From: Verrucomicrobiota bacterium
Lineage (GTDB): Bacteria; Verrucomicrobiota; Verrucomicrobiia; Limisphaerales; J093
Length of the DNA stretch: 64,000 nucleotides
Assembly: GCA_050012855.1 (NCBI GenBank)
Contig: JBEKGJ010000007.1
Span: 34,241-98,240, forward strand
Direction: 5' to 3'
Part shown: piece by piece, positions 3,849 to 59,869 of the stretch
How positions within the stretch are numbered: the stretch's first letter is position 1
Layout of the letters: each line of letters starts with the position of its first letter
Notes under the pieces: model-generated
What the model was told of the DNA's origin: nothing
Seen by the model: only the letters and a program-made list of their open reading frames with translations
Database searches by the model: none
Program-made: the position numbers and the translations under genes

Positions 3849-4342
3849 AATTCAAGTGCAGGCAGTCGGCCTGAGAGCGCGACACTGCGCGCGATTGCCG
3901 CCAACCAAGAGTCTTTTGGCGTGTTCGCCGACATGGGCGCGCAGCCTTCCAACTGGCCGGAATCAGCGACCGCGCGCCAGTGACGTCTGCCGTGGAACTG
4001 AGACGCAACCGCGGGGTTCGATGTATCCGGTTGGCTCGGCGAACAGTCTCTCACAAAACGCCCAATCCGACGAGCAAAACACCCGAACCGATCACCAGGC
4101 TCAAGCCAAAATACAACGGTGCCACGCGGCGACTGGCGGGTCGCGAGCAATCGGTTCACGTTTCATGGTTCCAAGTGTTCAGTGCCAGCCACGCGCGTTG
4201 GAATCTGAGCGAACAATCAAGAGTATAACCCGGTCGCCCGGTGTGCGTCACGGCTTTTCCGCCGGCTTGGCCTCGCCTCCACACACCCCTGCGGCCATCG
4301 CGCTGGCAGCAGAAACGCGCGCTGGCTTGCTGCTGACGGATG

Positions 4343-4432
4343 AGCTTCGTGGCGGCGTTTTCACCGGCCACGACGTAGTCGGTATTCTTGCTCACCGAGC
4401 TGGTGACGCTGCCGCCGGCGGCGGGGGTGAGC
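4343..4432 (-). pseudogene. ligA: Orphan duplicate of the ligA BRCT-coding segment (distal direct repeat)
   Basis: 90 bp, ~93% identical to 4951..5040 inside intact ligA. It translates in frame as [30 protein letters not shown], against [30 protein letters not shown] in ligA. Similarity is lost beyond both ends. Confidence 0.8.
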
Positions 4433-4841: not shown

Positions 4842-8455
<3,614 letters not shown>

Positions 8456-31109: not shown

Positions 31110-33503
31110 ATGCAAGTCCAACGGTTCCTGCCTGGCATCGCCGCCCTCGCGCTGTGGCTCCTTGCCTGCGGTTGCGGCACCAAAACCACGGCCCCGGCAC
31201 CCGAGCCTCGGACCGTCCCCGCGCCAAGCAACCTTGTCTTTCAACCAGACCGGCTGGCCGAAATGGACAACGTGATCCGCCAGGCCATCGCCGACAAGAA
31301 ATGCCCCGGCGGCGTGCTGTGGCTCGAGCGGCTCGGCACCGCCTACTACCAGGCCTACGGCCAGCGCGCTGGGGTCCCCGCGCCGGAGCCGATGACCGAG
31401 GACACGATTTTCGACGCCGCGTCGCTGACAAAAGTGCTCGCCACCGCGCCGGCCATCATGTCCCTGGTCGAGCGCGGGCAGATCCAGCTTGATGCAACCG
31501 CCCAAAGCTACCTGGCGGAATTCACCGGCGACGGCAAGGAGGCCATCACGATCCGTCAATTGCTCACCCACACGTCCGGCCTGCCGTCGGGCATCGGCCG
31601 GAGTCCCGACTGGACCGGCTATGACACCGCGATCCGACTGGCCTGCGCGGTGAAGCTGATCAACCGCCCGGGCACGACGTTCGTTTACAGCGACATCAAT
31701 TTCATCGTCCTCGGCGAGATCGTCCGTCGCGTCAGCGGTCGCGGACTGGACATGTTCACGGCCGAAAGCTTCTACCGGCCGCTGGGGATGGTGGACACGG
31801 AGTTTAACCCGCCCCCGGCGAAGCTCCCGCGCATTGCACCGACCGAGGTAGTAGATGGCAAGCCGTTCCGCGGCGTGGTGCATGATCCGACGTCCCGCCG
31901 CATGGACGGCGTCGCGGGCCACGCTGGCCTGTTCACCACCGCCGCCGACCTCGCCCGGTTCTGCCGCATGATGCTCAACGGTGGCGAACTCGATGGGGTG
32001 CGCGTGTTGCGGACGGAAACCGTCGCGCTCATGACCAGCGTCCAGACGCCGCCGGCGGTTCCGGCCCGGCGCGGGCTGGGCTGGGACATTGACTCGCCCT
32101 ATGCCGGCGAGCGCGGCGACCGTTTTCCGCTGGGCGGCTACGGCCACACGGGCTGGACCGGCGGATCGCTCTGGATTGATCCGTTTTCGCGCACGTTTTT
32201 GATTTTCCTCTCGAACCGCAATCATCCCGACGAAAGCGGGAACGTTCTCCCGCTGCGCCACATGCTGGGCACGCTGGCGGCCGAAGCGGTCGTAGGTTTC
32301 GATTTCAGTGCCGTGCCGGGCGCCCTGCCCGCCCGCACGAACGCCGCACCCGCGTGGCCAATGCCGACGGCGACCAATATGACCGTGCTCAACGGGATTG
32401 ACGTGCTCGCCCGACAGCAGTTCGCCCCGTTGCGTGGGTTGCGCGTCGGGCTGATCACCAACCCCACCGGCCACGACCGTGAGCGCCGGGCCACGATTGA
32501 TCTCCTCAAGGCTGCGCCCGAGGTCCGGCTCGTCGCCCTCTTCAGTCCGGAGCACGGCCTGCGCGGCGAACGCGACGAGCGGATCGGCGACAGCATGGAT
32601 GAACGGACCGGTCTGCCCGTTTACAGTCTCTATGGTGAGCGTCGCCAGCCGACCGCCGCGCAGTTGCAGGGGCTCGACGCCCTGGTGTTCGACATCCAGG
32701 ACATCGGCTGCCGGTTTTACACCTACATCGCGACAATGGGCCTGAGCATGGAGGCGGGGGCGAAGGCGGGCGTGAAATTCGTCGTGCTCGACCGCGTCAA
32801 TCCCATCGGCGGCGTGGCGGTGGACGGCCCGGTTTACGCGGGCCAGCCGGGCTTCACCGCGTTCCACGCGCTGCCGTTGCGCCACGGCATGACCGTCGGC
32901 GAGCTGGCGCGGATGTTCAACGCCGAGCGCGGCTGGCACTGCGACCTGACTGTGATTCCCGTCGCCGGCTGGTCGCGCACTCAGTGGTTTGACCAGACCG
33001 GTCTGCCGTGGACGAATCCATCGCCGAACATGCGGAGCCTGGCGGCGGCGACCCTTTACCCCGGCGTTGGCCTGCTGGAGACGGCGTTGTCCGTGGGTCG
33101 CGGGACGGAGACGCCGTTCGAGCTGGTGGGGGCGCCTTACATTGACGAGGCGGCGTTGGCGGCGGAACTCAACCGCGCCGGTCTGGCGGGCGTGCAGTTC
33201 GAGCCGGTGCGGTTCACCCCGACGGCGAGCGTGTTCAAGGACCGGCCCTGCGGTGGCGTGCGAATCCGCCTGGCCGATCGCAACCATGCCGACGCCGTGG
33301 GGCTGGGCATTGTGCTGGCGCAGACGTTGCACCGGCTCTATCCGCAGCAGTTCAAGCTGGAGAAGATGAACACGCTGCTACAGGACCCCGGCACCCTCGA
33401 CGCGATCCGGGCGGGCGCATCGCTCGCGGAGATCCGCGCCCGGTGGAACGCGCCGCTGGCGGCATTTCGGGAACGTCGGTCAAAATACCTCCTCTATCCA
33501 TGA
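31110..33503 (+). CDS. Fusion: beta-lactamase-family serine hydrolase (AmiE-like) + DUF1343 (NamZ-like exo-muramidase)
   Basis: N-terminal half has the SxxK motif (ASLTKVLAT), YSDIN and GHTGWTGG. C-terminal half (from about aa 400) has LNGIDVL...VGLITNPTG...LFSPEHG...PVYSLYG...FDIQDIGCRFYTYI, typical of DUF1343. Confidence 0.85.
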   Translation: MQVQRFLPGIAALALWLLACGCGTKTTAPAPEPRTVPAPSNLVFQPDRLAEMDNVIRQAIADKKCPGGVLWLERLGTAYYQAYGQRAGVPAPEPMTEDTIFDAASLTKVLATAPAIMSLVERGQIQLDATAQSYLAEFTGDGKEAITIRQLLTHTSGLPSGIGRSPDWTGYDTAIRLACAVKLINRPGTTFVYSDINFIVLGEIVRRVSGRGLDMFTAESFYRPLGMVDTEFNPPPAKLPRIAPTEVVDGKPFRGVVHDPTSRRMDGVAGHAGLFTTAADLARFCRMMLNGGELDGVRVLRTETVALMTSVQTPPAVPARRGLGWDIDSPYAGERGDRFPLGGYGHTGWTGGSLWIDPFSRTFLIFLSNRNHPDESGNVLPLRHMLGTLAAEAVVGFDFSAVPGALPARTNAAPAWPMPTATNMTVLNGIDVLARQQFAPLRGLRVGLITNPTGHDRERRATIDLLKAAPEVRLVALFSPEHGLRGERDERIGDSMDERTGLPVYSLYGERRQPTAAQLQGLDALVFDIQDIGCRFYTYIATMGLSMEAGAKAGVKFVVLDRVNPIGGVAVDGPVYAGQPGFTAFHALPLRHGMTVGELARMFNAERGWHCDLTVIPVAGWSRTQWFDQTGLPWTNPSPNMRSLAAATLYPGVGLLETALSVGRGTETPFELVGAPYIDEAALAAELNRAGLAGVQFEPVRFTPTASVFKDRPCGGVRIRLADRNHADAVGLGIVLAQTLHRLYPQQFKLEKMNTLLQDPGTLDAIRAGASLAEIRARWNAPLAAFRERRSKYLLYP

Positions 33504-34552
33504 ACCTCGAACCACCGGTTGTCGGATCCTCCGCCCGGCCCAGCACCCGGGCCGCGGCGTGGATGTTGTTCTTCCTCGCCCCGGCCGTCGGCGAACTGCT
33601 GAGCGGTTCGTCGCCGCCGCTCCGGTTTTTCAATCCCTTCACGCTGCTGATGGAGGCTTTCCTCTACGGCAGCGGCGCGTTGCTGGCGCGCGAGTTCACC
33701 CTCCGGTGGCGGCGAGGCTGGCCGACACTGCTGGCCCTGGGCGCGGCTTATGCCATCATTGAGGAGGGCTTGTGCTGCAAAAGCTTCTTTGACGCCAACT
33801 GGCCGGACGTCGGCCTGCTGGGCAGCTACGGGCGGTGGCTGGGGGTGAACTGGGCGTGGGCCGCCATGTTGATCCTGTTCCACACCGTGTTCAGCATTCT
33901 CCTCCCGATCACGCTGGTGGAGCTGACTTTTCCGGCGGCGCGCCATGAATCCTGGGTCGGCCCCCGGTGGCGCTGGGTGCTCGTCGGCCTGCTCACCCTG
34001 GTGGTCGTAACCGGGTTCCTGTTTTTCCCGGAGGGCAAGCACCCGTTCCGGCCGCCGCCGCTGGGCTATGGGCTCGCCGTGGTGAGCGTGGTGGTTCTCG
34101 GGGTCGTCGCCCGGCGGATGCCATTATTTCCCGCGCGGGCGGGCGGGCGCACGACGGCGGCCCGACCCTGCTGGTTCGTGCTGGTGGGGTTCTTCGGGAC
34201 GGTGGGGTTGTTTGCGACGTTCTGGCTGTTGCCGAACACGCCGCTGCATCCGTTGTTGACGGTGGCCGTGGGCCTGGTGCTGGGCGCCGGCGTGCTGGTC
34301 CTGGTCCTGTGGATGTCGGGTGGCGCGCACGCGTGGGGCGACCGGCATCGGGTGGCGCTCGTGTCCGGCGGGTTATGTTTCTTCGTGCTGCTGGCGCCGT
34401 TGCTGGAATTTGGCAAGCAGAACCCCTCCAAGCCGATGACCGGCATGGCGCTGGTGGGGCTGGCGACGCTGGGCTTCCTCCTCTGGCTGGGCCGGCGACT
34501 TCGGCGAATTCGGAGGTTGAATCCCCCGGGCGCGGCCGCAACATGCGCCTGA
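33500..34552 (+). CDS. Polytopic membrane protein, function unknown
   Basis: The start at 33500 overlaps the upstream stop (ATGA). At least 8 hydrophobic helices. The last ~17 codons lie inside direct repeat DR-A. Confidence 0.6.
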   Translation: MNLEPPVVGSSARPSTRAAAWMLFFLAPAVGELLSGSSPPLRFFNPFTLLMEAFLYGSGALLAREFTLRWRRGWPTLLALGAAYAIIEEGLCCKSFFDANWPDVGLLGSYGRWLGVNWAWAAMLILFHTVFSILLPITLVELTFPAARHESWVGPRWRWVLVGLLTLVVVTGFLFFPEGKHPFRPPPLGYGLAVVSVVVLGVVARRMPLFPARAGGRTTAARPCWFVLVGFFGTVGLFATFWLLPNTPLHPLLTVAVGLVLGAGVLVLVLWMSGGAHAWGDRHRVALVSGGLCFFVLLAPLLEFGKQNPSKPMTGMALVGLATLGFLLWLGRRLRRIRRLNPPGAAATCA

Positions 34553-34593
34553 CACTGCCTTATGAAAAGTCGCACTACTCCGCTGCTGGCCGC
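34502..34593. repeat. Island direct repeat DR-A (left boundary)
   Basis: 92 bp with 82/92 identity to 40692..40783. It covers the 3' end of the membrane-protein gene, the spacer, and an ATG plus ~10 codons homologous to the GH172 signal peptide ([11 protein letters not shown] versus MKNRTTLLLAA). Confidence 0.85.
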
Positions 34594-34987
34594 CAGTGCC
34601 TTCTGGCTGCCGCCCGAAGGGCGCTGGCAGACCATCCAGGCGACGGCCAAGTTGGCTGGGGTTGAAAAGGGTGGCGGGACCTTCAGGTCGGCCAAAACAA
34701 GTTGCCGCAATCGGCGAATGCACCGCGACTTCTCCCTCGCCGCCGCGAACGGGAACTTGAGCTGCTTGAGAGGCGGCGAAAGGGATTCGGCGAAGCCGAA
34801 GGACCGCTGCGGGCCGAGCGAGCGGGCGCGAGCGAGTCACTGGGCTGGGGTGAGACGTCGAGTTCAGCGCAACGCCGACATTTTTCAACATTTCATCCAT
34901 CACCTCTCGCCCGTGGGCGTGGCCGGATTCGTCCTCGCTGGTGGCACTATGTCCTCCAACCAGTCCGGCGATGCATTTGAAAACTAG
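34594..34987 (+). pseudogene. hsdM: Type I R-M methylase (HsdM) remnant, internally deleted and interrupted by a repeat element
   Basis: Two in-frame fragments: [19 protein letters not shown] (HsdM N-domain FxVPxxARW motif) and [33 protein letters not shown] (region after the catalytic motif; consensus WxQHFIxHLxPxGxAGFVLANGSMSS). About 250 aa between them are missing. The fragments are fused to the DR-A pseudo-start. Confidence 0.65.
34731..34845. repeat. Inverted-repeat element, left copy (IR-L)
   Basis: The reverse complement of core 34755-34845 matches 39459-39549 at about 93% (42 nt perfect: GCCCAGTGACTCGCTCGCGCCCGCTCGCTCGGCCCGCAGCGG). Contains internal small hairpins (TTCGGC-GAA-GCCGAA). 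Confidence 0.8.
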
Positions 34988-34993
34988 AAGCTC

Positions 34994-36223
34994 ATGATTG
35001 TTCGCCACATCACCCAGCCGGATCAATTTCACGGTCAAATTCTGGCCACTTTACTGGCACAGGCTCCTCATCCAAGAAGAGTAGTGCTTGTTTCAGCATT
35101 CGCTGGGTTACAGACCGTGATGCGTTTCAAACATTCCTTGATCGGTTTATCGGAACGTGGTGCCTTGGTTCGCCTTGTGATTGGTGTCGACATGCAGGGC
35201 ACTAGCCGAGAAGTGCTACAAGAATTGGCATCTTGGACACAAGTAGAAGTCTTCGTTTATCGGCACAGGAGGCCGGGACACACATTCCATCCGAAGATTG
35301 CTCTCATCGAATCGCCCACCGCATCTGATGTCTTTGTTGGTTCAAACAATCTCACCGAAGGGGGGCTCTTTCGGAATTATGAGGCCGCTAGCCATATTAC
35401 ATATTCGCTCCCGGCAGATTCTGATGCCTACACCCAAGCATGTCTTGGCCTTCGGCGGTTCCTAGAGCCAACATTGCCACTCGGACTGCGGCTAACTCCA
35501 AACCTTTACCAAGCACTCGCCCAAAGAACCGACATCCCGTCAGAAGCGCAACTCCAAGCAGATCGTCGCCGACAACGGGCTCAGTCTCAGGCCGGCGAAC
35601 CTGCGCAGAGACCTGAGGAAATATTTGGAACAGAGGCAATTCCCGCCCCGCCGCCGCTTCCGGCCGAACTGCTTGACGCGCTTTCGCTCGCCGTGAACCG
35701 CCGCCGTCGGGCGGTGGCGCAGCCAAATGCGGCCGCGCCTGCGATTGTCTCACCAGCACAAATAGCACCAGCGTCTTTTTACATGACGCTTCCAACGTTA
35801 CAGGGACCAAACATTCCGGGTGAAGGGCGAATACCACTCGCTGCCATTGAAATGGCGGAGGATTTTTGGGGATGGCCGGACGCCTATGAACGTCGTGAAA
35901 GCCCACGAGGTGGCGCGGAACGCGTCTATTTCAACTGGAGAAGTCGCTGGCAAATTGCCAATGCAGCGAATCCCGGAGTTCATACCCGCCAAGAGGTTCG
36001 AATGTACATGTACGAAAACAGTTCAGATTTTCGATTCTATGCCCGCCCTTTGGTGAATGCAGGAGCCGACCTTGGCGATATTGTGAGAATTACGCGAATC
36101 GGCTCGGAGGACGTCGATTTTGAATGCCTTCTCGCCCACCAAGGAACACCCGAGCATGCCACTTGGCTTCCGTTTTGCACGACTCTCGTCCGGAGCAGCA
36201 CGAGGAGATTCGGCTACGGGTGA
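34994..36223 (+). CDS. PLD-superfamily (single HKD) nuclease with putative B3-like DNA-binding C-terminal domain; BfiI/NgoFVII-like restriction endonuclease candidate
   Basis: 409 aa. One HKD motif, HTFHPKIALIESPTASDVFVGSNNLTEGG (aa 99-123). A Pro/Ala/Gln-rich linker follows. The C-terminal ~150 aa (FYMTLPTL...GEGRIPLAAIEMAEDFWGW...VYFNWRSRWQI...VRMYMYENSSDFRFY...GDIVRITRI) are beta-rich, in a pattern reminiscent of B3/EcoRII-N/BfiI-C pseudobarrels. GC is lower than the host. Confidence 0.7.
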   Translation: MIVRHITQPDQFHGQILATLLAQAPHPRRVVLVSAFAGLQTVMRFKHSLIGLSERGALVRLVIGVDMQGTSREVLQELASWTQVEVFVYRHRRPGHTFHPKIALIESPTASDVFVGSNNLTEGGLFRNYEAASHITYSLPADSDAYTQACLGLRRFLEPTLPLGLRLTPNLYQALAQRTDIPSEAQLQADRRRQRAQSQAGEPAQRPEEIFGTEAIPAPPPLPAELLDALSLAVNRRRRAVAQPNAAAPAIVSPAQIAPASFYMTLPTLQGPNIPGEGRIPLAAIEMAEDFWGWPDAYERRESPRGGAERVYFNWRSRWQIANAANPGVHTRQEVRMYMYENSSDFRFYARPLVNAGADLGDIVRITRIGSEDVDFECLLAHQGTPEHATWLPFCTTLVRSSTRRFGYG

Positions 36224-36264
36224 TATAGCATCACAAACACTCGGCGGCAGCCATGATTTTGGCA

Positions 36265-39162
36265 CTATGCTGTTTTTTCACACCAAATGATCTCATTCTC
36301 CGTGATGCTGTGCCTTGCGTGACGCCGGTTCTCGGTAGTTACGGTAATGGGAATCCGATCACGAATGTTCCACCCAAGTTCTGCCGCAGTTTCGGTCAAA
36401 ACATCCGCGCTCTTTATTATTACTTCCTGATCACCGGCGGTCGTGACGTTGTCGCCGATGACAAAAAAAGCTGACGCGCCGAGCTTGAGACACATGTCGA
36501 GATTTCGGAAGACCTTCGTCATGTCGGCGAAATAACGCAAGAGAAGCGCAGCCATGTTCTTCCTGCGGAAACCAACATCGGCGCTTTTATTGAGGCGATG
36601 GATTTTGGTGACGATAGCGCGAGCGGTAACGGATGGCACGTCATCGAATAGTGCAGCCTCGATTGTTGCTTCGAGCTTACGTCGGTCGCCATTGCGAATT
36701 TCTCTACTTCCTGTCAAAGACTCTTCAATTTGCGAACGCTCTGAGGACGAAACGCCGCAAAGAAGCAAGATGCTCAACCGGTCCGTGTCGATGTAGGGTA
36801 GCGCAGTCGCATAGGGAGGGCTCGTGATTACAGCGTTCACGCTCTCTTTTGTAATTCCAGCCGAGCTAAAACTGCGCACGTCTCGGCTGTCGTTCTGCCA
36901 GATATGTGAATCGCGGAATTTACACGGAGCTTTGTTTGATCGTGACGCGAATTCGCTTAACCGACCACGCTGTTCGGCAAGGTGCGACAAAAACAATTCA
37001 AAGACTGGCGCATCTTCAATCGGTTTGTCACGGCGTCGAATCCGAAGGTCTTTTGGGTCTTGCTGGGAAATATCTCGCACGATGCTGCTGAGCAGGACTT
37101 CGAGAAATTCTTTTACTCGCACCTCTGGCGTCTCACGGATTGCACGGAGCAACGCTGCGAGCTTGCGAAGCACCATTGTTGGAAACCAAGCCTCAAGTTC
37201 TTTCATTGAGGTTTGTGGGAAAACATCCAATTCAGACGATGGCTTTAATGCTGCAACTCGTTGTTGAAAAAGCGCCAGAAGCCGGTCTCGTAAATAGGGG
37301 TCAACCAATACAACCTCGGTTTTCGCCTTGGCAATCTTGATGGCCAACGGATTCATGTCGAAACCGACACCCTCAAATCCGTTGAGATACGCTTCAAGCG
37401 GGACAGTCCCACTTCCACAGAACGGGTCGAGAACTCGTTGGCCAATCGAAAGCCCCGCGAGATTAAAGAGGCTGCGGGCCAGTTGGGGGTAAAATTTGCC
37501 CTTGTAGGCATGTATGCCATGCGTGACATATTTCGGGTCTTTTCTCGCAGAAGTTTTCAGGGCATCGCCGTTTTCAAGAATCGCCTGCCAAGTTGGTTCT
37601 TCATGGATGGAAGTTGCAGCAAAGCTGTGACTAAACGTAAGCTGTCGCAGCTTGTCGATTTGAAGGGGACTGATTCGGGCCGTCAATATGTTGCCAAGCT
37701 CTTCTTGGGCGCTGACGCCGAGCAAGTGACTAATTTCAACTTTCCGAAGTTCCGCCTCATAGGGCCAAAGTTTGTATGGGGGTGGAAAGATCCGAATCTT
37801 CACTTGTTCAAGCGGCTTCCTTAACACCAGTAAACTTTCGGAGCGCAGCCGTCGCGCAGTTGAAATGAACGACCGGCGATGTTTGGGAAGGTCGCGTTCA
37901 ATTTCTCCGACGACCTCAAATCCTACTTCTTGAGCTCGCTCTCCGAGCAGACCAGCCGTGTGGGATAGTTTCCCAGCAAACAGGGAATCTCCAACAACCA
38001 TTACCGCAAAGCGCCCTGGACGGAGGCCATGCATCATGTGTCCGAGGCACTGCTGCATTTCGTTCAGGTATTCCTGAATTCCAGATTGCTCTTTCTGGTG
38101 TCGAAGGTGCGAGCCTATCTCCTTTTTCGCCAGCTCACGCGGATCGAATCCGAGCCAGAAGAGTCGGAAACGGTGGTAAAGATGGTAATCGTTGGCGTTG
38201 GCGTAGGGCGGCGACGTTACGATCAAGTCCACCGATCCCGGTTTGACGACATCGCCTTGCCGCAGGTCCGCAGTCAGGAATTGCGCTTCGCGAAATTGCA
38301 GAAACGTGCCGAGGTAACGAACCTTCTTCAGTGACGATTCCAATGCACCGGCAAACAGCCGGATGATCTTTCCTAGCGGGAATTCTTTCTGACAACGCGC
38401 ATATCGTGTCTCACTGTCTTGAAACGAAGCCTTGAGAATAATCTTCGACAGGCAGACCGACGCAAGGCGTTGGCATTTTTCCGACTGGAAAGTCTTGATT
38501 CGCGCTCTCAAATAAGAAAGCTCGGCAACTGCGTTTGGGTGAAACCATTGATCACAGTTTGGAATGTCAGGGGCAAACTGTGAAAGAGGGGCAAACCTGT
38601 TTAATGCTTCCGAGACAGAACCTTCACTTGCCGAAATGATGAACAACTGTTCAACAAGACTGGTCAGAAAATCGTCATCCTCTTTTGTGGGGGTGAGCAG
38701 CTTCGCCTTGCCAATGACTTCGGCAAGAGGATTCAAATCAGAACTGATTGCCTGCCGTCCCAAAAGCACGCTTTCGAGAGCTGTTGTGCCGCTGCCGCCA
38801 AATGGATCCCAAACCGTTTCTCCCGGAAGAGACAGGCGAGCAATCAGGTTGCGTGGGATTTGAGGGACAAACTTCGAAGGGTAGGGATGAATGTCGTGAG
38901 AAAGATAAGTCGTGTCATCGTCGGTGAAAGCCCAGTCAAGTTGCTGCAACTGGCGCAAAACTTCATCAGCGTCCGCTAACGATTCCAGGTTTTGAGGGTC
39001 TTGAGGGGTTTGTATCGGCTCAAACGAAAAATCGGCTGTGGCCTCGGCGATGTTGTCCGTGAACCACTCGGTCAAGGTCGCCCCGTTCTCTTTCAGCACA
39101 GAGGCGAGCGCCTGTTTCTGCGACTTGGTGGTTTCTACAAGGATTTGCGTTCCGGTTCGCAT
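36265..39162 (-). CDS. Tandem double DNA methyltransferase (two N4C/N6A-type modules) with putative N-terminal ribbon-helix-helix segment
   Basis: 965 aa, the lowest GC in the window. Module 1: HPYPSKFVPQIPRNLI...WDPFGGSGTT (aa 119-127) and IVTSPPY (317-320). Module 2: HAYKGKFYPQLARSLF...LDPFCGSGTV (579-587) and VITSPPY (781-784). N-terminal TQILVETTKSQKQALASVLKENGATLTEWFTDNI has a strand-helix-helix pattern. Convergent with the PLD gene. Confidence 0.85.
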   Translation of the reverse strand: MRTGTQILVETTKSQKQALASVLKENGATLTEWFTDNIAEATADFSFEPIQTPQDPQNLESLADADEVLRQLQQLDWAFTDDDTTYLSHDIHPYPSKFVPQIPRNLIARLSLPGETVWDPFGGSGTTALESVLLGRQAISSDLNPLAEVIGKAKLLTPTKEDDDFLTSLVEQLFIISASEGSVSEALNRFAPLSQFAPDIPNCDQWFHPNAVAELSYLRARIKTFQSEKCQRLASVCLSKIILKASFQDSETRYARCQKEFPLGKIIRLFAGALESSLKKVRYLGTFLQFREAQFLTADLRQGDVVKPGSVDLIVTSPPYANANDYHLYHRFRLFWLGFDPRELAKKEIGSHLRHQKEQSGIQEYLNEMQQCLGHMMHGLRPGRFAVMVVGDSLFAGKLSHTAGLLGERAQEVGFEVVGEIERDLPKHRRSFISTARRLRSESLLVLRKPLEQVKIRIFPPPYKLWPYEAELRKVEISHLLGVSAQEELGNILTARISPLQIDKLRQLTFSHSFAATSIHEEPTWQAILENGDALKTSARKDPKYVTHGIHAYKGKFYPQLARSLFNLAGLSIGQRVLDPFCGSGTVPLEAYLNGFEGVGFDMNPLAIKIAKAKTEVVLVDPYLRDRLLALFQQRVAALKPSSELDVFPQTSMKELEAWFPTMVLRKLAALLRAIRETPEVRVKEFLEVLLSSIVRDISQQDPKDLRIRRRDKPIEDAPVFELFLSHLAEQRGRLSEFASRSNKAPCKFRDSHIWQNDSRDVRSFSSAGITKESVNAVITSPPYATALPYIDTDRLSILLLCGVSSSERSQIEESLTGSREIRNGDRRKLEATIEAALFDDVPSVTARAIVTKIHRLNKSADVGFRRKNMAALLLRYFADMTKVFRNLDMCLKLGASAFFVIGDNVTTAGDQEVIIKSADVLTETAAELGWNIRDRIPITVTTENRRHARHSITENEIIWCEKTA

Positions 39163-39191
39163 TTCTGGGATGGTAGTCTATCATCCCAGAA
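39163..39191. promoter_or_regulatory. Perfect 10-bp inverted repeat abutting the methyltransferase start codon (candidate operator)
   Basis: TTCTGGGATG-N9-CATCCCAGAA. On the coding strand the right arm runs directly into the ATG (CATCCCAGAAATG). Confidence 0.45.
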
Positions 39192-39209
39192 TCTGACAAT
39201 AGATTTTTT

Positions 39210-39445
39210 CACCTTTTTTGCATGGCCATGCCGGACATTTCGATTTTGTCCGACGAATTTCTGGCCGAGGTCCAGCGGCTGCCACGGCGCGACCTTGCCG
39301 TGGAATTGTTCCAGAAGCTGCTGAACAACGAGTTGAAAACTCGGCAGAAGAAATACCTGGTCCAGTCCTGCTCGTTCGCTGAAATGCTGGAAGCCACCAT
39401 CCGCAAATAGCAAAACCGCACCATCGAGGCCGCGCAGGGATTTCG
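39210..39445 (+). pseudogene. hsdR: Type I restriction subunit HsdR, C-terminal fragment only
   Basis: [71 protein letters not shown] matches the conserved HsdR C-terminal (DUF3387-type) region. The in-frame TAG (39408-39410) sits where homologs have Tyr (RKYQNR). Nothing N-terminal to this survives. Confidence 0.65.
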
Positions 39446-39458
39446 ACAGCTCGCCCCG

Positions 39459-39573
39459 GCCCAGTGACTCGCTCGCGCCCGCTCGCTCGGCCCGCAGCGG
39501 GCCTGCGGCTTCGCCGAATTCCTTTCGCCGCCTCCCAAGCGGCTCAAGTCCCCGGACGAGGCGGAGAGGGTGT
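39459..39573. repeat. Inverted-repeat element, right copy (IR-R)
   Basis: See IR-L. Lies between the hsdR remnant and the four-helix-bundle gene. Confidence 0.8.
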
Positions 39574-40005
39574 CGGTCCTGGCCTGACCTGCCGCTTCTC
39601 CAGCGTGCCGTTGCCCGGGATGGGCCGGGTCGGCTCAAACCTGTGTAAACGCCTGAGAATCAGCGTCTCGCGTTCAAGCACCGGGGGCTGATTGGCGTGC
39701 GGCAGGCCCGGAACGGCGCGTTTTGACCGCTGACGGCCGCGCGGAGGACGCTTTCCGGAACGCGGATCGTTCTGATCCGGTCGCGGACGGTGCTTTCGCT
39801 TTCGCGGGAGACGCTTAGGGCGGCGGGGCAACCGCTTTCAGCGGCGCGGAGGGCGCTGACGGGGCGGCGGACGACGGGGACATTTGCGCGGCGCCTGCCG
39901 CTCCTCCGGCGGAAGGCCCTGCGGGTCGTGCGCGTCAGGCCGTCCCATTCGCGGCGGACGATTACGAGGAGGAGATGCTGCGCCTCTGCCGCCGCACTGC
40001 CTGGC

Positions 40006-40650
40006 ATGAAGCAAGGGCCGGAGAGACTGATTCCCTTGCATCGCGGGTACCGGAAGCTGAAGAGCTTCCAGGTTGCCCAACTGGCCTACGATGTGACGGT
40101 GCGTTTCTGCGACCGCTATATTGACAGGCGGAGCCGGACCCACGACCAGATGGTCCAGGCGGCGCGGTCGGGCGTGCAGAACATCGCCGGGGGCAGTCAG
40201 GCGAGTGGAACGTCCAAGAAGACCGAGCTCAAGCTCACAAACGTGGCCCGGGCCAGCCTGGAGGAACTGCGGCTGGACTATGAGGATTTTCTGCGGCAGC
40301 GCGGTCTGGCGCAGTGGCCCAGCGAAGACGTGCGCCGGGCGGAACTGATAGCAGCGCGGCCCGGCACCGCCGATGATGTGGCGGAGTGGGTGCGGGCCGT
40401 GCATGAGGGACTACATGGACGACGTGGACAGGATGGACAAAGCCCGGTAGAACAAAAGTCCACGGTGTCCATTCAGGCCACCACGTCCACCTATGCTGAG
40501 ATTTCAGCCAACGGCGCGCTGGCGCTGCTGACGGTGGCGTGCAGCCTGCTGGACCGCCAGATAACTTCTCTCGAAAAGGCCTTCGTGGAAGAGGGCGGTT
40601 TCACCGAGCGGCTCTATCGTGTCCGCAGCCAGAGGAGAAGGCGCGGTTGA
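40006..40650 (+). CDS. Four-helix-bundle protein (23S rRNA IVS-protein family) with C-terminal suffix domain
   Basis: Start preferred at MKQGPERLIPLHRGYRKLKSFQVAQLAYDVTVRFCDRY...QMVQAARSGVQNIAGGS...SLEELRLDYEDFLRQRGL, the family signature. As I recall, this family is often embedded in Type I R-M loci. Confidence 0.8.
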   Translation: MKQGPERLIPLHRGYRKLKSFQVAQLAYDVTVRFCDRYIDRRSRTHDQMVQAARSGVQNIAGGSQASGTSKKTELKLTNVARASLEELRLDYEDFLRQRGLAQWPSEDVRRAELIAARPGTADDVAEWVRAVHEGLHGRRGQDGQSPVEQKSTVSIQATTSTYAEISANGALALLTVACSLLDRQITSLEKAFVEEGGFTERLYRVRSQRRRRG

Positions 40651-40691
40651 ACTTGCCGTGCCTGCCGCCGCCGGAGTGCCGGGGGCGGTCC

Positions 40692-40783
40692 CGGCGAATT
40701 CGGAGGTTGAATTCCCCGCCCCCGGCCGCAACATGCGGCTGACACTGCTTTATGAAAAACCGCACCACCCTGCTGCTGGCCGC
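40692..40783. repeat. Island direct repeat DR-B (right boundary)
   Basis: Partner of DR-A. Contains the real start and signal-peptide codons of the GH172 gene. Confidence 0.85.
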
Positions 40784-42296
40784 GCTCGTCGCCGGCGCCA
40801 CCTCCCTGCTCGCCCAATCGTCCCCCGGTTTCCCCACCGGCAACCCGCTCGCCGGTCTGGAGAAACTCAAGAACTTCGAGACCCGCCGGGCCTCGTCGTC
40901 CGACCCGAACTGGAAGAATGGCAACAACGACGCCCGGCCGATCGCGCCCGGAGGCACGTTGACCCTCGGCGAATTCGACGGTCCGGGCGTCATCACCCAC
41001 TTCTGGTGCACCATCGCCCACGACGCCCCCTACTACTCGCGGCTGATGACGCTCCGGATCTACTGGGACGGCGAGGAACATCCCAGCGTCGAATGCCCCA
41101 TCGGCGATTTCTTCGGGATCGGCCACGGCGTGGACCAGTCGTTCACGTCGCTGCCGATCCGGGTCACGTCGAACGGACGCGCCCGGAATTGTTACTGGCC
41201 GATGCCGTTCCGGAAGTCGGCGCGCATCACCGTCACGAATGAGAGCGAGCAGCGCTGTCATGCCTTTTACTACTACCTGGACTGGCAAAAGCACGATTCG
41301 CTGCCGGACGACACCGCCTATTTTCACGCGATGTACCGCCAGGAATATCCGTGCGTGATGGGGCAGAACTATCTGCTGGCGGACCTCGTCGGCCGCGGCC
41401 ACTACATCGGCACCATCCAGAGCGTGTATCACGTGTCGCCCGGCTGGTACGGCGAAGGCGACGATTTCTTCTTCATTGACGGCGCGGCCGAACCGCAACT
41501 GCGCGGCACGGGCACGGAGGATTATTTCTGCAACGGCTGGGGCTTCGAGCAGCAGGCCGGTCCCTTTTACGGCACGCCACTGTGGGAGGGTTTCGACACG
41601 GGCGACCGCGGCACGGCCTACCGTTTCCACATCCCCGACCCGGTGACGTTCACCAAATCCCTGCGGGTCGAGATCGAACACAAGGGCTCGGAGACGTTCC
41701 CGGACGGGAAGTTCGACGGCTTCATCGAGCGCGACGATCTGATGTCGAGCGTGGCGTTGTGGTATCAGACCGAGCCGCACAAGGTCTGGCTGGCGTTGCC
41801 GCCCGGCGCGGAGCGGCTGCCGTTCCGGGAACAATCGCTGGTCGTGGGCTGGAAATCGGTCAAGGAAGCGAAACACTCCGCGGCGCCGCTCGAGGTGCAG
41901 GAAGTCGGCGGCCTGACCGACAACAAGCAGCTCTGGTTCAAGCCCACCGACACGAACGCGTGGGTGGAGGTGCCGTTCAGCACGGAAAAAGAGGCCACCG
42001 CGCAGTTGTGGGTGAAACTGCTGCATTCCTGGGACTACGGGACGTATCGGGTGCGGCTCGATGGCAAGGAACTGGCCACTCTCGACCTGCTCAACGCGGA
42101 CGCGGTTCCGGAAGCGCACAAGCTGGGCTTCGTCACACTTGCGGCCGGGCCGCACACGCTGCGGTTCGAGTGCGTGGGCAAGGCCGAGAAATCCAAGGGC
42201 TACTTTTTCGGATTCGATACCCTGACGGCGCGGATCCCGGTCTATTCCCGGCCCGCGAGCAAGGATCTGCGCGAACTGCAGGTGGCGCCGAAGTGA
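40752..42296 (+). CDS. DUF2961 / GH172-family glycoside hydrolase, secreted
   Basis: Signal peptide MKNRTTLLLAALVAGATSLLAQ. Motifs GVITHFWCTIAH, IGDFFGIGHG, NCYWPMPFRKSARITVTNES, FYYYLDWQKH and WYGEGDDFFFIDG...LRGTGTEDYF. Confidence 0.85.
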   Translation: MKNRTTLLLAALVAGATSLLAQSSPGFPTGNPLAGLEKLKNFETRRASSSDPNWKNGNNDARPIAPGGTLTLGEFDGPGVITHFWCTIAHDAPYYSRLMTLRIYWDGEEHPSVECPIGDFFGIGHGVDQSFTSLPIRVTSNGRARNCYWPMPFRKSARITVTNESEQRCHAFYYYLDWQKHDSLPDDTAYFHAMYRQEYPCVMGQNYLLADLVGRGHYIGTIQSVYHVSPGWYGEGDDFFFIDGAAEPQLRGTGTEDYFCNGWGFEQQAGPFYGTPLWEGFDTGDRGTAYRFHIPDPVTFTKSLRVEIEHKGSETFPDGKFDGFIERDDLMSSVALWYQTEPHKVWLALPPGAERLPFREQSLVVGWKSVKEAKHSAAPLEVQEVGGLTDNKQLWFKPTDTNAWVEVPFSTEKEATAQLWVKLLHSWDYGTYRVRLDGKELATLDLLNADAVPEAHKLGFVTLAAGPHTLRFECVGKAEKSKGYFFGFDTLTARIPVYSRPASKDLRELQVAPK

Positions 42297-42326
42297 CCGG
42301 GCCGCCCGGCGAACCAAGGACCTGAT

Positions 42327-44951
42327 ATGCGGAACGGCGTCTGGTTTCTAGCCGCGTGTCTGGCCGGCACGACAGCGTGGTCGGCACCCGTGCTGCGTGT
42401 GGCGCGCGAGACAGCGCCGGGCACGGTGTTGCTGCGCAACGGCGGTTTCGAGGAATTGCGCGAGGCGCGGCCCGCCGGCTGGCAGCCGTTCGGTGCCGGC
42501 TTCCGATCCGCGCCTGGCGCGGGCCGCAACGGCTCCACGGCGATTTTCTGTCAGAACGAGACTGACCGGACGGCCAGCGGCGCGAGCCAGACCGTGGTGC
42601 TCGCGCGCACGAACACCGCCCCGCTGGTCGTGCGCGGCTGGAGCCGGGCCGAAGGGGTGACCGGCGGCACGGACGGCGACTACTCGCTCTACGTGGACCT
42701 CGTGTACACCGATGACACGCCGTTGTGGGGGCAGACCGCCAGTTTCCGCTGCGGCACCCACGACTGGGAATACCACGAGTTCGTGATCCTGCCGGAAAAG
42801 CCGGTCAAATCGCTGACCCTCAACTGCCTTCTCCGCGGCCACTCAGGCAAGGTGTGGTTCGACGACGTGTCGGTGGAGGAACTGCGCGCGGCGGAAGGCG
42901 CGACGCTCTTTCAGGGCGTGGCCGTCCAGCCCGCGCCCAATTCCAATTCTCCATCGCGCAAACCCGACGAGCGCCGCGCAACGCAGGACGGCTTGATGCT
43001 CGGCTTGCGCGACGACGCCGTGGTTTCGCTACGCCTCGACGGCCGCGAACTCGCGTCGCCTTCGTTGCCCGGCGGTTTCCTCGTCCGCGACGTGGCGACG
43101 AACTCCGACTTTTGCGCCTTTGAAAACGGCGCGTGCCCGGAGCTGGGCCTCAAGCTGAACGCGCAGGTCCAGGCCGCGGCGGACCATCTCACCGTCACCG
43201 GCCGGGTCACCGACACGGCGGGCCGGGATCGCGCGGTGACGCTGGTGTTTGCGTTGCCGCTCGACGCCACCGGCTGGCGTTGGGGCGACGACATCCGGCG
43301 CAGCCGCGTGATCCACGGTCAGGGCGAGTTCGCGAACGTCATCAGTGTGCGCTCGGGTGCGACCGGCACGATGTCGCTCTATCCCGTCGGCGCCGTGTGG
43401 AACGAGCGCGCCGGCCTGGCGCTGGCGCTGGACATGGCGGAGCCGGCGCAGTTCCGCGTCGGTTATCACGCCAGCACGCGCCAATTGTTCATGGCGTACG
43501 ATTTCGGGCTGGTGAAGGAGGCCGAGCGCTTTCCGGGCGGCGCGGATTTCCGGTTTGTGATCTACCGCTTCGAGCCGCGCTGGGGTTTTCGCGCCGCGTT
43601 CCAGAAGCTGCGGACGATCTTCCCGGACTACTTTGCGGTGCGCTCGCGGGACCAGGGCCTGTGGATGCCGTTCACCGACGTGAGCACGGTCCACGGCTGG
43701 GAGGACTTCGGCTTTCGCTACCACGAGGGCAACAACAACGTGCCGTGGGACGACGCGCACGGCGTGCTCAGCTTCCGCTACACCGAGCCGATGACTTGGT
43801 GGATGGCGATGAAACCGGAGCTGCCGCGGACGCCCGCGGCGGCGTTCCGCGTGCGCGAGGAACTGGCCGCCGGCGCGAATGCGGAGCAGCGCCGCTTTGC
43901 CGCGGCCTCGCGCGTCGCCGCCATGTCCGACGAAGCCGGCGAACCGGGCCTGATCTTCCGCAACGAACCGTGGTGCAACGGCGCCGTGTGGAGCCTCAAT
44001 CCGAATCCGCATCTGCCGGGCTCACCGAACGCGGCAACGCTGCACTGGAACGACGCGACCAAGCAGCAGCTCTACGGCCCGGCGGCCACGGGCCACCTGG
44101 ACGGCGAATATCTGGATTCGCTCGAAGGCTACGTCACCGCGGAGCTGAATTTCCGCCGCGAGCATTTCCGGTTTACCACGGTGCCGCTCACGTTTTCCGC
44201 CGACACCCACCAGCCGACGCTGCTGAAGGGGCTGGCGGTGTTCGAGTTCACCAAGTGGTTCTGCGACGACGTGCACCGTCTGGGGAAGCTGACCTTCGCC
44301 AACGGCGTGCCTTATCGCTTCTCCTTCCTGTGTCCGTGGCTCGACGTGATGGGCACCGAGACGGATTGGCTGCGCGACGGCCGTTACGCGCCGGTGCCGG
44401 TGTCGCAGACAGATCTCTGGCGCACGATGGCGGGCGGGAAACCGTATCTGCTGCTGATGAACACGGACTACGACGTGTTCGGGCCACCGATGGTGGAGAA
44501 GTATTTTCAGCGCGCGCTGTTTTACGGCATGTGGCCGGGTTTCTTCAGCCACAACGCGTCGGAGAACCCGTATTGGCAGAACCCAAAATGGTACGAGCGC
44601 GACCGGCCGCGGTTCAAAGAGTACCTGCCGCTTATCAAACGCGTCGCGGAGGCCGGGTGGCAGCCGGTCACCCAAGCGGCGAGCGACAACGGCGCGATCC
44701 TCGTGGAGCGCTTCGGTCCGGACACTGCGGGCACGCTTTATTTCACCGTGTTCAACGACACCGCGCAGGAGCAAAGCGGGACGGTGCAGTGCGATTTCAA
44801 AGCCCTGCACCTGCCCCGCAGCGTCGCGGCCCAAGAGCTGATCACGGGAACGCCGGTGGCCTCGGTGGGTGGCGGCTGGCCGGTCCGGTTGGCACCACAG
44901 GACGCGAGGCTGTTTTGTGTCACGGCCCCCGGCGCCCACCCTGCGAAGTGA
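42327..44951 (+). CDS. Secreted protein with N-terminal CBM-like jelly-roll; putative glycoside hydrolase of unknown family
   Basis: 874 aa with a signal peptide. N-terminal LLRNGGFEE...GWQPFG...SQTV...KVWFDDVSVEEL resembles a CBM4/9-type module. The rest is not recognised. Confidence 0.65.
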   Translation: MRNGVWFLAACLAGTTAWSAPVLRVARETAPGTVLLRNGGFEELREARPAGWQPFGAGFRSAPGAGRNGSTAIFCQNETDRTASGASQTVVLARTNTAPLVVRGWSRAEGVTGGTDGDYSLYVDLVYTDDTPLWGQTASFRCGTHDWEYHEFVILPEKPVKSLTLNCLLRGHSGKVWFDDVSVEELRAAEGATLFQGVAVQPAPNSNSPSRKPDERRATQDGLMLGLRDDAVVSLRLDGRELASPSLPGGFLVRDVATNSDFCAFENGACPELGLKLNAQVQAAADHLTVTGRVTDTAGRDRAVTLVFALPLDATGWRWGDDIRRSRVIHGQGEFANVISVRSGATGTMSLYPVGAVWNERAGLALALDMAEPAQFRVGYHASTRQLFMAYDFGLVKEAERFPGGADFRFVIYRFEPRWGFRAAFQKLRTIFPDYFAVRSRDQGLWMPFTDVSTVHGWEDFGFRYHEGNNNVPWDDAHGVLSFRYTEPMTWWMAMKPELPRTPAAAFRVREELAAGANAEQRRFAAASRVAAMSDEAGEPGLIFRNEPWCNGAVWSLNPNPHLPGSPNAATLHWNDATKQQLYGPAATGHLDGEYLDSLEGYVTAELNFRREHFRFTTVPLTFSADTHQPTLLKGLAVFEFTKWFCDDVHRLGKLTFANGVPYRFSFLCPWLDVMGTETDWLRDGRYAPVPVSQTDLWRTMAGGKPYLLLMNTDYDVFGPPMVEKYFQRALFYGMWPGFFSHNASENPYWQNPKWYERDRPRFKEYLPLIKRVAEAGWQPVTQAASDNGAILVERFGPDTAGTLYFTVFNDTAQEQSGTVQCDFKALHLPRSVAAQELITGTPVASVGGGWPVRLAPQDARLFCVTAPGAHPAK

Positions 44952-46718: not shown

Positions 46719-50080
<3,362 letters not shown>

Positions 50081-50097: not shown

Positions 50098-50493
50098 TTA
50101 GGCCGCCGTGGCCAATTCCCGGCGGGACAAGGTCAGCGGATACGACTGGATGAGGACATCGGCGGAGATTCCCAGGCCGGCGTGCAGGCGCCGGATCATC
50201 GCCATCGTCAGAGCCCGGCGGCGGCCGAGGATGTCGTGAACGATCCGGGCGCTGCCAATATACGGAATCAGATCGCTGGCCGATAAGCCGCGGCTTTCCA
50301 GGTGGTATCGGATCGCCTCCACGGGGTCGGGTGCCGGCATCGGTTCGTGCTCGCTTTCGTAGGCTTCCACCAGCGTGGTGAGCACATCCAATTGATCGCC
50401 AGTCGGCGTGCCGGGCTTGGCGTCGAAGAGACGCTCGATTTGCGCCAGGGCCGCCTGGTGGTCTGCTTCCGTCCGGATGGGGCGAATTTGCAT
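50098..50493 (-). CDS. higA: HigA-family antitoxin (XRE HTH)
   Basis: Start at MQIRPIRTEADHQAALAQIERLFDAKPGTPTGDQLDVLTTLVEAYE, the typical HigA N-terminal region, followed by an HTH segment (ALTMAMIRRLHAGLGISADVLI). Confidence 0.8.
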   Translation of the reverse strand: MQIRPIRTEADHQAALAQIERLFDAKPGTPTGDQLDVLTTLVEAYESEHEPMPAPDPVEAIRYHLESRGLSASDLIPYIGSARIVHDILGRRRALTMAMIRRLHAGLGISADVLIQSYPLTLSRRELATAA

Positions 50494-50510
50494 GGCTCTC
50501 GCCTTTCCTG

Positions 50511-50804
50511 TCAAACCGTCGTCACGTTGATTCGGTCGTAGTCCACATGCGTTCCAACGAACCGCACATACACAATGCCATAGCCGTAATGGATGGCAAC
50601 CACCAGACGGTAGGCGTTGCCCTTGATGTTGAAGACCACCCGGTTGTTGGCCACGACGCTCGCATTGCGGTAAATCCGTTTCAGGTCGGCTGGCGACCGC
50701 CAGTCGGCCCGCTTGGCATCCCGGAACCACGCCAGCAACGGCTGACGGGCATCCGGGTGACGCTCCCAGAATTCCCGGAGAATCCGGCGGGAGATGATGC
50801 GCAT
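50511..50804 (-). CDS. higB: HigB-family mRNA interferase toxin
   Basis: MRIISRRILREFWERHPDARQPLLAWFRDAKRADWRSPADLKRIYRNASVVANNRVVFNIKGNAYRLVVAIHY is the HigB toxin signature. The ATG lies 6 nt after the decarboxylase stop. Confidence 0.85.
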   Translation of the reverse strand: MRIISRRILREFWERHPDARQPLLAWFRDAKRADWRSPADLKRIYRNASVVANNRVVFNIKGNAYRLVVAIHYGYGIVYVRFVGTHVDYDRINVTTV

Positions 50805-50809
50805 CGCCG

Positions 50810-50845
50810 CTCAGGTGTTCACGTGCACCACCTTCGCGGGCGGGA
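50810..50845. repeat. Proximal copy of the 36-bp direct repeat (3' end of the intact decarboxylase gene)
   Basis: Identical to 50045..50080. Confidence 0.9.
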
Positions 50846-59408: not shown

Positions 59409-59575
59409 CACGCTGGCGATTCCGCGCCAATGCGAGCCGGATTGACTATGAGCACGCCGACACAAACGAAGCCCGGCTCCACGTTCAAAACCGTGCCGGT
59501 CACGCCGCCGAGCCAGCACACTATCATCCGCGCCCGCTCGCTCTAGCCTGCCGGCGGTCGGTCGGGATTCGATTC

Positions 59576-59693
59576 GGGGAGCACAGGCGGCTCGCCTGTT
59601 GCGTCCGGCGGCCCGCCGGACGCTTCATTCTGGCGGAGTGGGCAGGTTTTCGGCGGGCCGCCGAAAACCACACGCCGGCGGCATGTGCTCCCC
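59576..59693 (+). other. GC-rich multi-hairpin structured element (candidate ncRNA or repeat)
   Basis: Closing stem GGGGAGCACA (59576-85) pairs with TGTGCTCCCC (59684-93). It encloses three near-perfect hairpins: CAGGCG-GCT-CGCCTG, GCGTCCGGC-GGCC-GCCGGACGC and GGTTTTCGGCG-GGC-CGCCGAAAACC. Confidence 0.3.
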
Positions 59694-59869
59694 GGAAAAG
59701 GGGTCGGTTCTTGATAATGGATACTCATCGCCCGGCTTCCTCCGGCGAGACAACCGGTGGTTCGGATGACCGCGCGTTGCCATCCACGGCGGCCCGGCGG
59801 TCCACGACCCACCGCGCCATTTCGCCAGTTGCGTCCCCGGCGCGCCGTCGGCTAGATTGTTCCCGGTTT

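Follow-up and report, generated by a model that had tools for sequence, protein, structure and literature searches.

A BfiI-like Type IIS restriction-modification cassette within the remnants of a Type I operon in an uncultured peat Verrucomicrobiota genome

What kind of event leaves the debris of one restriction-modification (R-M) system wrapped around the genes of another? The question is raised by a stretch of 64,000 nucleotides (nt) from a Verrucomicrobiota bacterium (assembly GCA_050012855.1, contig JBEKGJ010000007.1, positions 34,241 to 98,240), referred to here as the window and numbered from its first letter. The window belongs to a metagenome contig with a high guanine-cytosine (GC) content (64%), which falls to 50-55% over approximately 34950-39450. 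In this interval, fragments of the Type I genes hsdM and hsdR lie on either side of a nuclease gene and a DNA methyltransferase gene that resemble the Type IIS system BfiI, and an intact GH172 gene (40752-42296) follows downstream. The locus is probably a foreign composite, 6.2 kb long and situated at the 5' end of the GH172 gene, in which an apparently intact BfiI-type module sits inside a dead Type I operon and which was emplaced by non-site-specific recombination.

The Type I homology starts with two pieces of hsdM on the plus strand, both inside a single open reading frame (ORF) at 34562-34987. hsdM fragment A (34586-34669) corresponds to residues ~92-118 of ~460 and contains the motif FWLPPEGRW. 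In tblastx alignments, this motif pairs with FWVPREARW of locus L014 and FWVPPEARW of L013; the wood-metagenome locus L005 was matched too, and the DNA of fragment A is 86-87% identical over 53-64 nt to its hsdM. hsdM fragment B (34869-34977) covers residues ~320-358, 3' of the catalytic NPPF motif, and its protein sequence (34886-34972) is 79% identical to residues 330-358 of L014 HsdM and 76% identical to L013 HsdM. These identities to real hsdM genes sustain the claim of a preliminary description, made from the letters alone, that an hsdM remnant survives as two in-frame pieces. L013 and L014, together with L012, are loci from long-read assemblies with complete Type I operons of a related family, and they were used as reference sequences only. 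The operons of all three are split into many short ORFs by frameshifts, which may be sequencing errors or real decay, and in L014 transposase genes of the IS1595 and DDE types also separate hsdM, hsdS, and hsdR.

On the far side of the low-GC genes, a plus-strand fragment at 39204-39437 corresponds to HsdR residues ~865-940 of ~1090. Translated through an in-frame TAG (39408-39410), it matches the Pfam profile PF11867 (T1RH-like_C) with an E-value of 1.8e-23, and its protein is 82-83% identical to the hsdR remnant of L005. The TAG is aligned with Tyr in every homolog, as described before. The same description took the fragment for the last ~75 codons of hsdR. This has to be corrected: the match occupies profile positions 143-220 of 329, and L014 HsdR extends ~120 residues beyond the equivalent sequence, so that the fragment is internal, cut at both ends, and ~110-120 C-terminal codons are missing as well. 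Profile searches, proposed earlier as a check on all fragments, thus bear out hsdR and do less for hsdM. The Pfam model N6_Mtase matches fragment B with an E-value of 0.072 only, yet at the expected profile positions 156-192, and no Pfam match was obtained for fragment A. A conserved family of mini-genes encoding short hsdR-like proteins was considered and set aside. All 73 matches to a 70-amino-acid (aa) hsdR query (73/73) are 54-123 aa long, which is at least partly a search effect and probably reflects a candidate length filter.

Beyond these pieces, tblastn and tblastx searches of positions 33000-41500 with the Type I references revealed no further hsdM or hsdR homology. The locus lacks HsdM motif I as well as the catalytic NPPF, which lies at residue 295 in L014. 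Within the same interval, L014 HsdS finds nothing by tblastn, and no homology to HSDR_N, ResIII, or SWI2_SNF2 occurs anywhere. The earlier statement therefore stands that the locus has lost the catalytic core of hsdM, hsdS in its entirety, and over 90% of hsdR. The Type I pieces are remnants and include no member of a working R-M system.

What fills the space between them is, as the preliminary description had it, a low-GC pair of genes, an assignment that GC content and domain matches bear out. The BfiI-like Type IIS R-M cassette spans approximately 34978-39203, has a GC content of 51-55%, and shares continuous DNA homology of 67-68% with the free-standing cassettes of the metagenome loci L095 and L096. 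This homology runs from 34982/34988 to 39169/39175, the multiple alignment extends to ~39203, and none is found beyond. The breakpoints given earlier, ~34988 and ~39205, are correct within ~10 bp by these limits.

The restriction endonuclease gene (34994-36223, plus strand) encodes a full-length protein of 409 aa with an N-terminal phospholipase D (PLD) domain of the HxK type and a C-terminal B3-like DNA-binding domain of the BfiI type. Pfam recovers PLDc_2 above its cut-off (1.4e-8) and BfiI_DBD at 1.6e-5 (25.2 bits against a cut-off of 25), and the PADLOC model REase_II matches at 5e-11. The BfiI structure PDB 2C1L matches both domains (E-value 1.7e-10), with the PLD part aligned to BfiI residues 33-138, and both 2C1L and 3ZI5 match nuclease residues 338-408. 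The HxK motif GHTFHPK is invariant in 20 nuclease homologs, and homologs, of which there are more than 380, span 100% of the protein. The cluster to which the nuclease belongs is labelled in one source as a protein of a Verrucomicrobiota metagenome-assembled genome. By homology, the nuclease would be a metal-independent enzyme of the PLD family.

Convergent with this gene, 36265-39162 on the minus strand encodes a fused double DNA methyltransferase of 965 aa. It has two N6_N4_Mtase domains, matched by Pfam in two stretches, two SPPY motifs, and two full-length matches to PADLOC MTase_II models (residues 65-449 and 456-951). Two beta-class methyltransferases in one polypeptide would, judging from their homologs, modify the two strands of an asymmetric target. 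The closest cassette contexts, L095 and L096, show 78-81% identity and the same convergent pair. Together with 70 further metagenome loci, they make up the 72 PLD-bearing loci that were fetched. Approximately 55 of the 70, namely those with enough flanking sequence, have the convergent PLD and double-methyltransferase pair as well. Type I homology is present in the flanks of none of the 72. This indicates that the cassette entered a Type I operon and that the Type I pieces are not parts of the cassette, which is apparently an intact, independent, and widespread two-gene R-M module. A candidate hsdM scrap upstream of the L095 PLD gene (z = 3.4; 5 of 500 shuffles as good) was dropped, given the absence of Type I homology across the fetched loci.

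The broken genes are in turn bracketed by an inverted repeat (34734-34861 and 39443-39570) of 128 nt, 89% complementary and extendable to ~135 nt. Both arms are long forms of a unit that resembles repetitive extragenic palindromic (REP) elements. The left arm (34734-34868, minus strand) holds the unit in inverted orientation and abuts hsdM fragment B with its inner end, whereas the right arm (39438-39575, plus strand) holds it in direct orientation and abuts hsdR right after ...IEAAQ. hsdM fragment A falls outside the repeat. The window arms consist of a 51-nt unit plus an 84-nt nested insert. In the locus L169, the palindromic 51-nt unit occurs three times without it (TTCGACACCTCACCCCGGCCCTCTCCCC...CGAGGCGGAGAGGGTG, with an N4 spacer), twice in direct orientation between hsdR scraps and once inverted in hsdM. 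The left arm and the hsdM-side unit of L169 have both flanks in common, TGTCGGCGTTGCGC (hsdM codons 320-323) and AAGTCGCG. The junctions read as unit followed by CTGCTGAACAACGA and as GCCGCGCAG followed by GRATTTCGAC. The database fragment P0066 has the same joint between hsdR ...IEAAQ and the unit, and in P0070, P0072, and L011 the unit is followed by LLNNELK.

Across 2.2 Mb of fetched DNA scanned for the unit, its specific form was found only beside the Type I remnants of one lineage, and generic relatives of the CCCTCTCCCC...GGGGAGAGGG palindrome occur elsewhere in Verrucomicrobia (L021, L041). Three scans of viral contigs for the unit or the unit-hsdR junction gave no matches. No short target duplication lies outside the arms, whose outer flanks are ...CGCGACTTCT and TGTCGGTCCT... 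The arms were also considered as a structured RNA or DNA element, which was rejected, as no Rfam match appeared at E-values up to 1 and folding is no better than that of shuffled sequence. The 51-nt short form recalls REP and REPIN elements in being GC-rich and palindromic (CCCTCTCC...GGAGAGGG) and in occurring in several copies, in both orientations, in non-functional DNA. It differs from them in its restriction to the remnants of one Type I lineage, and no RAYT-type transposase turned up, though none was searched for. The 84-nt nested insert in the window copies, moreover, breaks the palindrome. Our interpretation is that a REP-like element either spread into this Type I lineage or contributed to its breakage.

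A different kind of repeat marks the outer limits. The right, native copy of a 92-nt direct repeat (40692-40783, plus strand) forms the 5' end of the intact GH172 gene. The left copy (34502-34593, plus strand) reproduces the GH172 leader together with the first 11 codons, and the ORF that contains the hsdM pieces takes its ATG (34562) from this copy. The copies are 88% identical, and a single copy in the relative L167 (5161-5250) matches both. Neither this repeat nor the 128-nt inverted repeat has other copies within the window. hsdM fragment A is joined to the left copy at an 8-nt microhomology, CTGGCCGC, which lies exactly at the junction and is found in both GH172 copies, in the GH172 gene of the relative as CTGGCTGC, and in the L005 hsdM. 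Between fragment A and the left inverted-repeat arm lies a filler (34670-34733), whose interpretation as rearranged hsdM was rejected because the similarity is not significant, with 20-59% of shuffles equalling it. The resulting ORF of 141 codons, annotated as a gene in the source, is a chimera of GH172 start, hsdM fragment A, filler, repeat arm, and hsdM fragment B. Its stop codon is separated from the nuclease start by 6 nt, and the duplicated GH172 leader might drive expression of the nuclease.

The insert between the copies (34594-40691) is 6.1 kb long and holds the R and M genes; the composite measures 6.2 kb. No integrase or transposase is present within or beside it. Its remaining part (39576-40691, plus strand) consists of 430 nt of high-GC filler and a four-helix-bundle gene at 40006-40650. 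The product of this gene belongs to the 23S rRNA IVS family and has a suffix domain (NCBIfam TIGR04258, 7.7e-20; TIGR02436, 6.2e-6). None of the segment, this gene included, has a homolog in L167.

The relatives of the GH172 gene define the chromosomal side of the site. The closest (P0194) is 97% identical, and the closest with usable DNA, L167/L168, have a GH172 gene that is 85% identical. By blastn, L167 5161-9440 is collinear with window positions 40692-44951 at 81% identity. The collinearity of L167/L168 starts exactly at 40692 and continues beyond 51948. Upstream, these relatives have neither the Type I genes nor the island, and a different, unrelated gene is the left neighbour. Of the earlier proposal of defence turnover at a fixed hotspot, one part holds, as a Type I system has been gutted and another R-M system occupies its space, whereas a replacement in place and a fixed hotspot are not shown. 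An attempt to reach the ancestral locus through the NamZ gene was uninformative, with none of 80 genome loci (at most 70% protein identity) sharing neighbouring genes with the window.

A second insertion lies ~10 kb from the R-M composite. There, a HigB toxin gene (50511-50804, minus strand; Pfam 6.9e-32) and its 131-aa partner (50098-50493) are flanked by 41-nt direct repeats (50040-50080 and 50805-50845) that are 95% identical. At this site, L167 has one repeat copy, no insert, and collinear sequence on both flanks, that is, an empty site. The HigB pair (50098-50804) is a clean insertion of a toxin-antitoxin pair with a long target duplication. It shows that such insertion has occurred in this lineage, and the same process is the most economical reading of the 92-nt repeat.

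The joints suggest how the composite might have been assembled. By illegitimate recombination, the cassette would have taken the place of the ~100 codons at the 3' end of hsdM, of the whole of hsdS, and of ~80% of hsdR, leaving hsdM residues ~320-358 and hsdR residues ~865-940 beside it. The loss of the hsdM core (residues ~119-319, including the catalytic motif) and that of the hsdR C-terminus would be separate lesions, with both outer breaks capped by the inverted pair of REP-like units. The 5' end of hsdM would then have been fused at CTGGCCGC to the duplicated GH172 leader and start. Because hsdM is joined to the GH172 copy at this microhomology and the hsdM-unit junctions recur in L169, the 5' truncation and the core loss of hsdM are best separated from the insertion of the cassette. 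The composite carries no fewer than four distinct lesions and may already have been broken on arrival. We infer both the order of these events and the place of the replacement.

For the arrival itself, two routes are conceivable. The composite could have inserted with a long target duplication, as known for R-M genes. It could also have entered through one-sided homologous recombination in GH172 combined with an illegitimate join at the microhomology, a process reportedly described by de Vries and Wackernagel in 2002 as homology-facilitated illegitimate recombination. The latter would explain the 12% difference between the repeat copies and the coincidence of repeat start and collinearity start. 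By either route, the composite would have been placed or re-joined by non-site-specific recombination and not by an integrase or a transposase.

Remnants of the same Type I lineage enclose other defence systems elsewhere. In L005-L010, from a wood metagenome, hsdM residues 1-215 are followed by GAAD, DO-GTPase2, DO-GTPase1, and GAP1-N1, and then by an hsdR pseudogene. That of L005 is the closest hsdR relative (83% protein identity) and ends within ~5 codons of the end of the window fragment. The flanking genes are unrelated to those of the window, and orthology of L005 and the window was rejected, as comparison of the whole loci showed only the hsdR and hsdM scraps to be shared. None of the proteins of the GAAD/GTPase set (L005 3877-10279, also in L006-L010) matches a PADLOC model. 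L169 and L170 contain hsdM residues 1-91, hsdM scraps, RadC, Type III-like Mod and Res, and then several hsdR scraps. Within L169 (2380-10190), hsdM codons stand out of order, 320-323 before 274-295, which suggests template switching. In L011, just an hsdR scrap of ~105 nt is left.

The inner breakpoints differ among the three kinds of locus, lying at residues 358, 295, and 215 on the hsdM side and at three different points on the hsdR side. The three replacements are therefore independent, and defence cassettes seem to have landed repeatedly in the interior of the Type I operon. The nuclease gene in the window and the cassette genes in L005 and L169 run in the same direction as hsdM. This orientation would allow use of the upstream promoter of the operon, and inheritance of that promoter by the cassette is possibly the reason why cassettes land there.

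Substitution patterns add a further layer. The ratio of nonsynonymous to synonymous substitutions (dN/dS) between the hsdR scrap of the window and its counterparts is 0.12 against L169 and 0.15 against L005, the differences being mostly synonymous. We infer from these ratios that the hsdR fragments probably diverged mostly as working genes. The shared hsdM-unit junctions, on the other hand, suggest that the window and L169 derive from a common ancestor that was already broken. A mosaic origin, the spread of a unit-bearing segment by recombination, or site-specific insertion of the unit could each explain this conflict, and the samples behind the ratios, at 84-207 nt, are too short to choose among them.

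Several observations weigh against the reading of the locus as a foreign composite emplaced by non-site-specific recombination. The conflict just described is one of them. No genome was found with an empty site, in which the AF_0692 gene directly precedes GH172, nor one with an intact Type I operon here; the search for an intact hsdMSR in related genomes, suggested by the preliminary description, thus came back empty. The collinearity with the relative ends exactly at the left edge of the repeat, so the left flank lends no support to a simple target duplication. The repeat copies, finally, are just 88% identical, which would require an old event or copies from two different lineages.

One alternative is that an intact hsdM-hsdS-hsdR operon once stood at this exact site, that the cassette overwrote its centre there, and that the remaining lesions arose afterwards by decay in place. 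The two sets of fragments, hsdM and hsdR, do lie on the same strand, in the expected order, and with a cassette-sized spacing, and what precedes GH172 in this genome is not what precedes it in the relative, as would be expected at a variable spot. The dN/dS of 0.12-0.15 likewise suggests that hsdR was functional until fairly recently. However, no relative has Type I genes here, and the microhomology fusion to the duplicated GH172 start fits the arrival or re-joining of a 5'-truncated hsdM better than decay in place. The hsdM-unit-hsdM lesion is, moreover, common to L169 in an unrelated context, and GC content is 56-59% in the Type I fragments enclosed by the inverted repeat, compared with 64-70% in the host flanks. 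We therefore regard replacement at the site as possible though rather doubtful. Least credible is an artefact, whether from chimeric assembly of the metagenome or from short matches to Type I motifs that arose by chance. The metagenomic source and the poor Pfam results for the two hsdM pieces would permit such a view, but peat contigs of the Joint Genome Institute (JGI) of up to 146 kb contain the nuclease gene and the GH172 gene without any sequence difference. All 24 contigs with the nuclease gene (24/24) were read and fall into two near-identical neighbourhoods from JGI samples (L001 and L002), both with repeat and gap sequences 100% identical to the window. The strong hsdR match, together with hsdM pieces 79% (protein) and 87% (DNA) identical to real genes at collinear positions, makes an artefact very improbable indeed.

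The inverted repeat raises another prospect, namely that 34734-39575 is a module, non-autonomous and transposon-like or bounded by recombination sites, that was moved in trans by an enzyme recognising the unit. Inverted repeats of 128-135 nt enclose the R-M genes, an arrangement shared with the transposon-like R-M units described in PMC2853133. L169 is built alike around a different cassette, with the unit inverted beside hsdM and repeated in direct orientation beside hsdR; the confinement of the unit to these remnants and the recurrence of unit-to-hsdR junctions in P0066, P0070, P0072, and L011 point the same way. Yet a short target duplication outside the arms is missing, as is a transposase or recombinase inside or beside the module, and the DNA outside the arms is also derived from Type I genes (hsdM fragment A; hsdM residues 1-91 and hsdR in L169). 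The palindrome that marks the short form has been lost in the long one, the arms fold no better than shuffled sequence, and similar CCCTCTCCCC...GGGGAGAGGG palindromes are generic in Verrucomicrobia. A mobile module of this kind is therefore unlikely. The non-site-specific emplacement of a foreign composite remains our preferred explanation.

A broader idea can be formulated on the same material. In Verrucomicrobiota, defence cassettes could be exchanged again and again on a platform formed by the remnants and inverted units, with the hsdM and hsdR arms and the units acting as recombination handles, by a logic like that of inversely oriented pdif modules or integron attC sites. If true, this would account for the presence of three unrelated defence systems (BfiI-like Type IIS, Type III with RadC, and GTPase-centred) in three related remnants, and for the selective constraint that the hsdR fragments appear to show. 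We consider such a platform a speculative and improbable extension of the data.

Elsewhere in the window, a 91-nt direct repeat (4342-4432 and 4950-5040; 93% identical, spacing 608 nt) probably represents a repeat within one coding region. Positions 59575-59694 hold a 44-nt inverted repeat whose arms are 80% complementary and 32 nt apart.

How the cassette compares with characterised enzymes can be stated domain by domain. The nuclease shares the two-domain architecture of BfiI across both domains, including the HxK motif, and stands beside putative methyltransferase capacity for two strands. No ATPase partner gene adjoins it, a difference from NgoAVII and a further likeness to BfiI. The identity to BfiI is nevertheless low, and the DNA-binding domain alone scores well, with an i-Evalue of 0.43 for the PLD part within the PDB match. 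BfiI has two separate N4-cytosine methyltransferases, whereas the methyltransferases here are fused in one 965-aa protein encoded on the opposite strand. The module of PLD nuclease and fused double methyltransferase is uncharacterised and a candidate source of new metal-independent Type IIS enzymes.

The replacement itself has precedents. Furuta et al. (2010; PMC2853133) described R-M systems that replace one another by allelic substitution, that insert with a long target duplication, or that lie between long inverted repeats. The enterobacterial hsd locus, or immigration control region, shows cassette-like variation, and a gene embedded in a Type IC locus is described as well (PMC12707154). 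As in these cases of allelic substitution, one restriction system stands in another's place through local defence turnover. The described cases, however, swap whole systems between conserved host anchor genes, whereas here scraps of the old Type I genes flank the cassette and the breakpoints lie inside hsdM and hsdR. The prrC gene in the EcoprrI Type IC locus (PMC12707154) is likewise a foreign defence gene between Type I genes in the direction of hsdM, as are the nuclease gene here and the cassettes of L005 and L169. In the prr case, the Type I system stays intact and cooperates, while it is destroyed in the window, in L005, and in L169.

Insertion of R-M genes with long target duplication traces back to Nobusato et al. 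(2000), as cited in Furuta et al. (2010; PMC2853133), according to whom the first cases were Type IIS. Such inserts are defined there by the presence of R and M genes, a length below 20 kb, the absence of mobility genes, and a direct repeat of more than 30 bp, and also by a genome without the insert in which a single repeat copy has both flanks collinear. The composite agrees with the features of the insert itself, with 6.1 kb, R and M genes, no mobility gene, and a 92-nt repeat that is single-copy in the relative. It departs from the described cases in the identity of its repeats (88% as opposed to typically more than 90% in the tables of PMC2853133), in a left flank that is not conserved in the relative, and in a left junction that lies in a Type I pseudogene at a microhomology.

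Defence turnover is usually inferred from presence or absence among strains, whereas here all joints of one replacement can be read. These comprise the cassette limits to ~10 bp, the 8-nt outer microhomology, the probable 92-nt target duplication, and the inverted repeat that caps the broken genes. The locus offers a concrete case of an overwritten Type I operon interior. It would also extend R-M mobility by long target duplication, mainly known from Helicobacter, Haemophilus, and a few others, to uncultured peat Verrucomicrobiota. The three remnants with three different defence systems provide a hint that Type I operons may be preferred landing places. Compared with the systems above, the kind of event is already known; what is new is the lineage, the base-level view of the joints, the BfiI-like module with its fused methyltransferase, and the hint of repeated overwriting.

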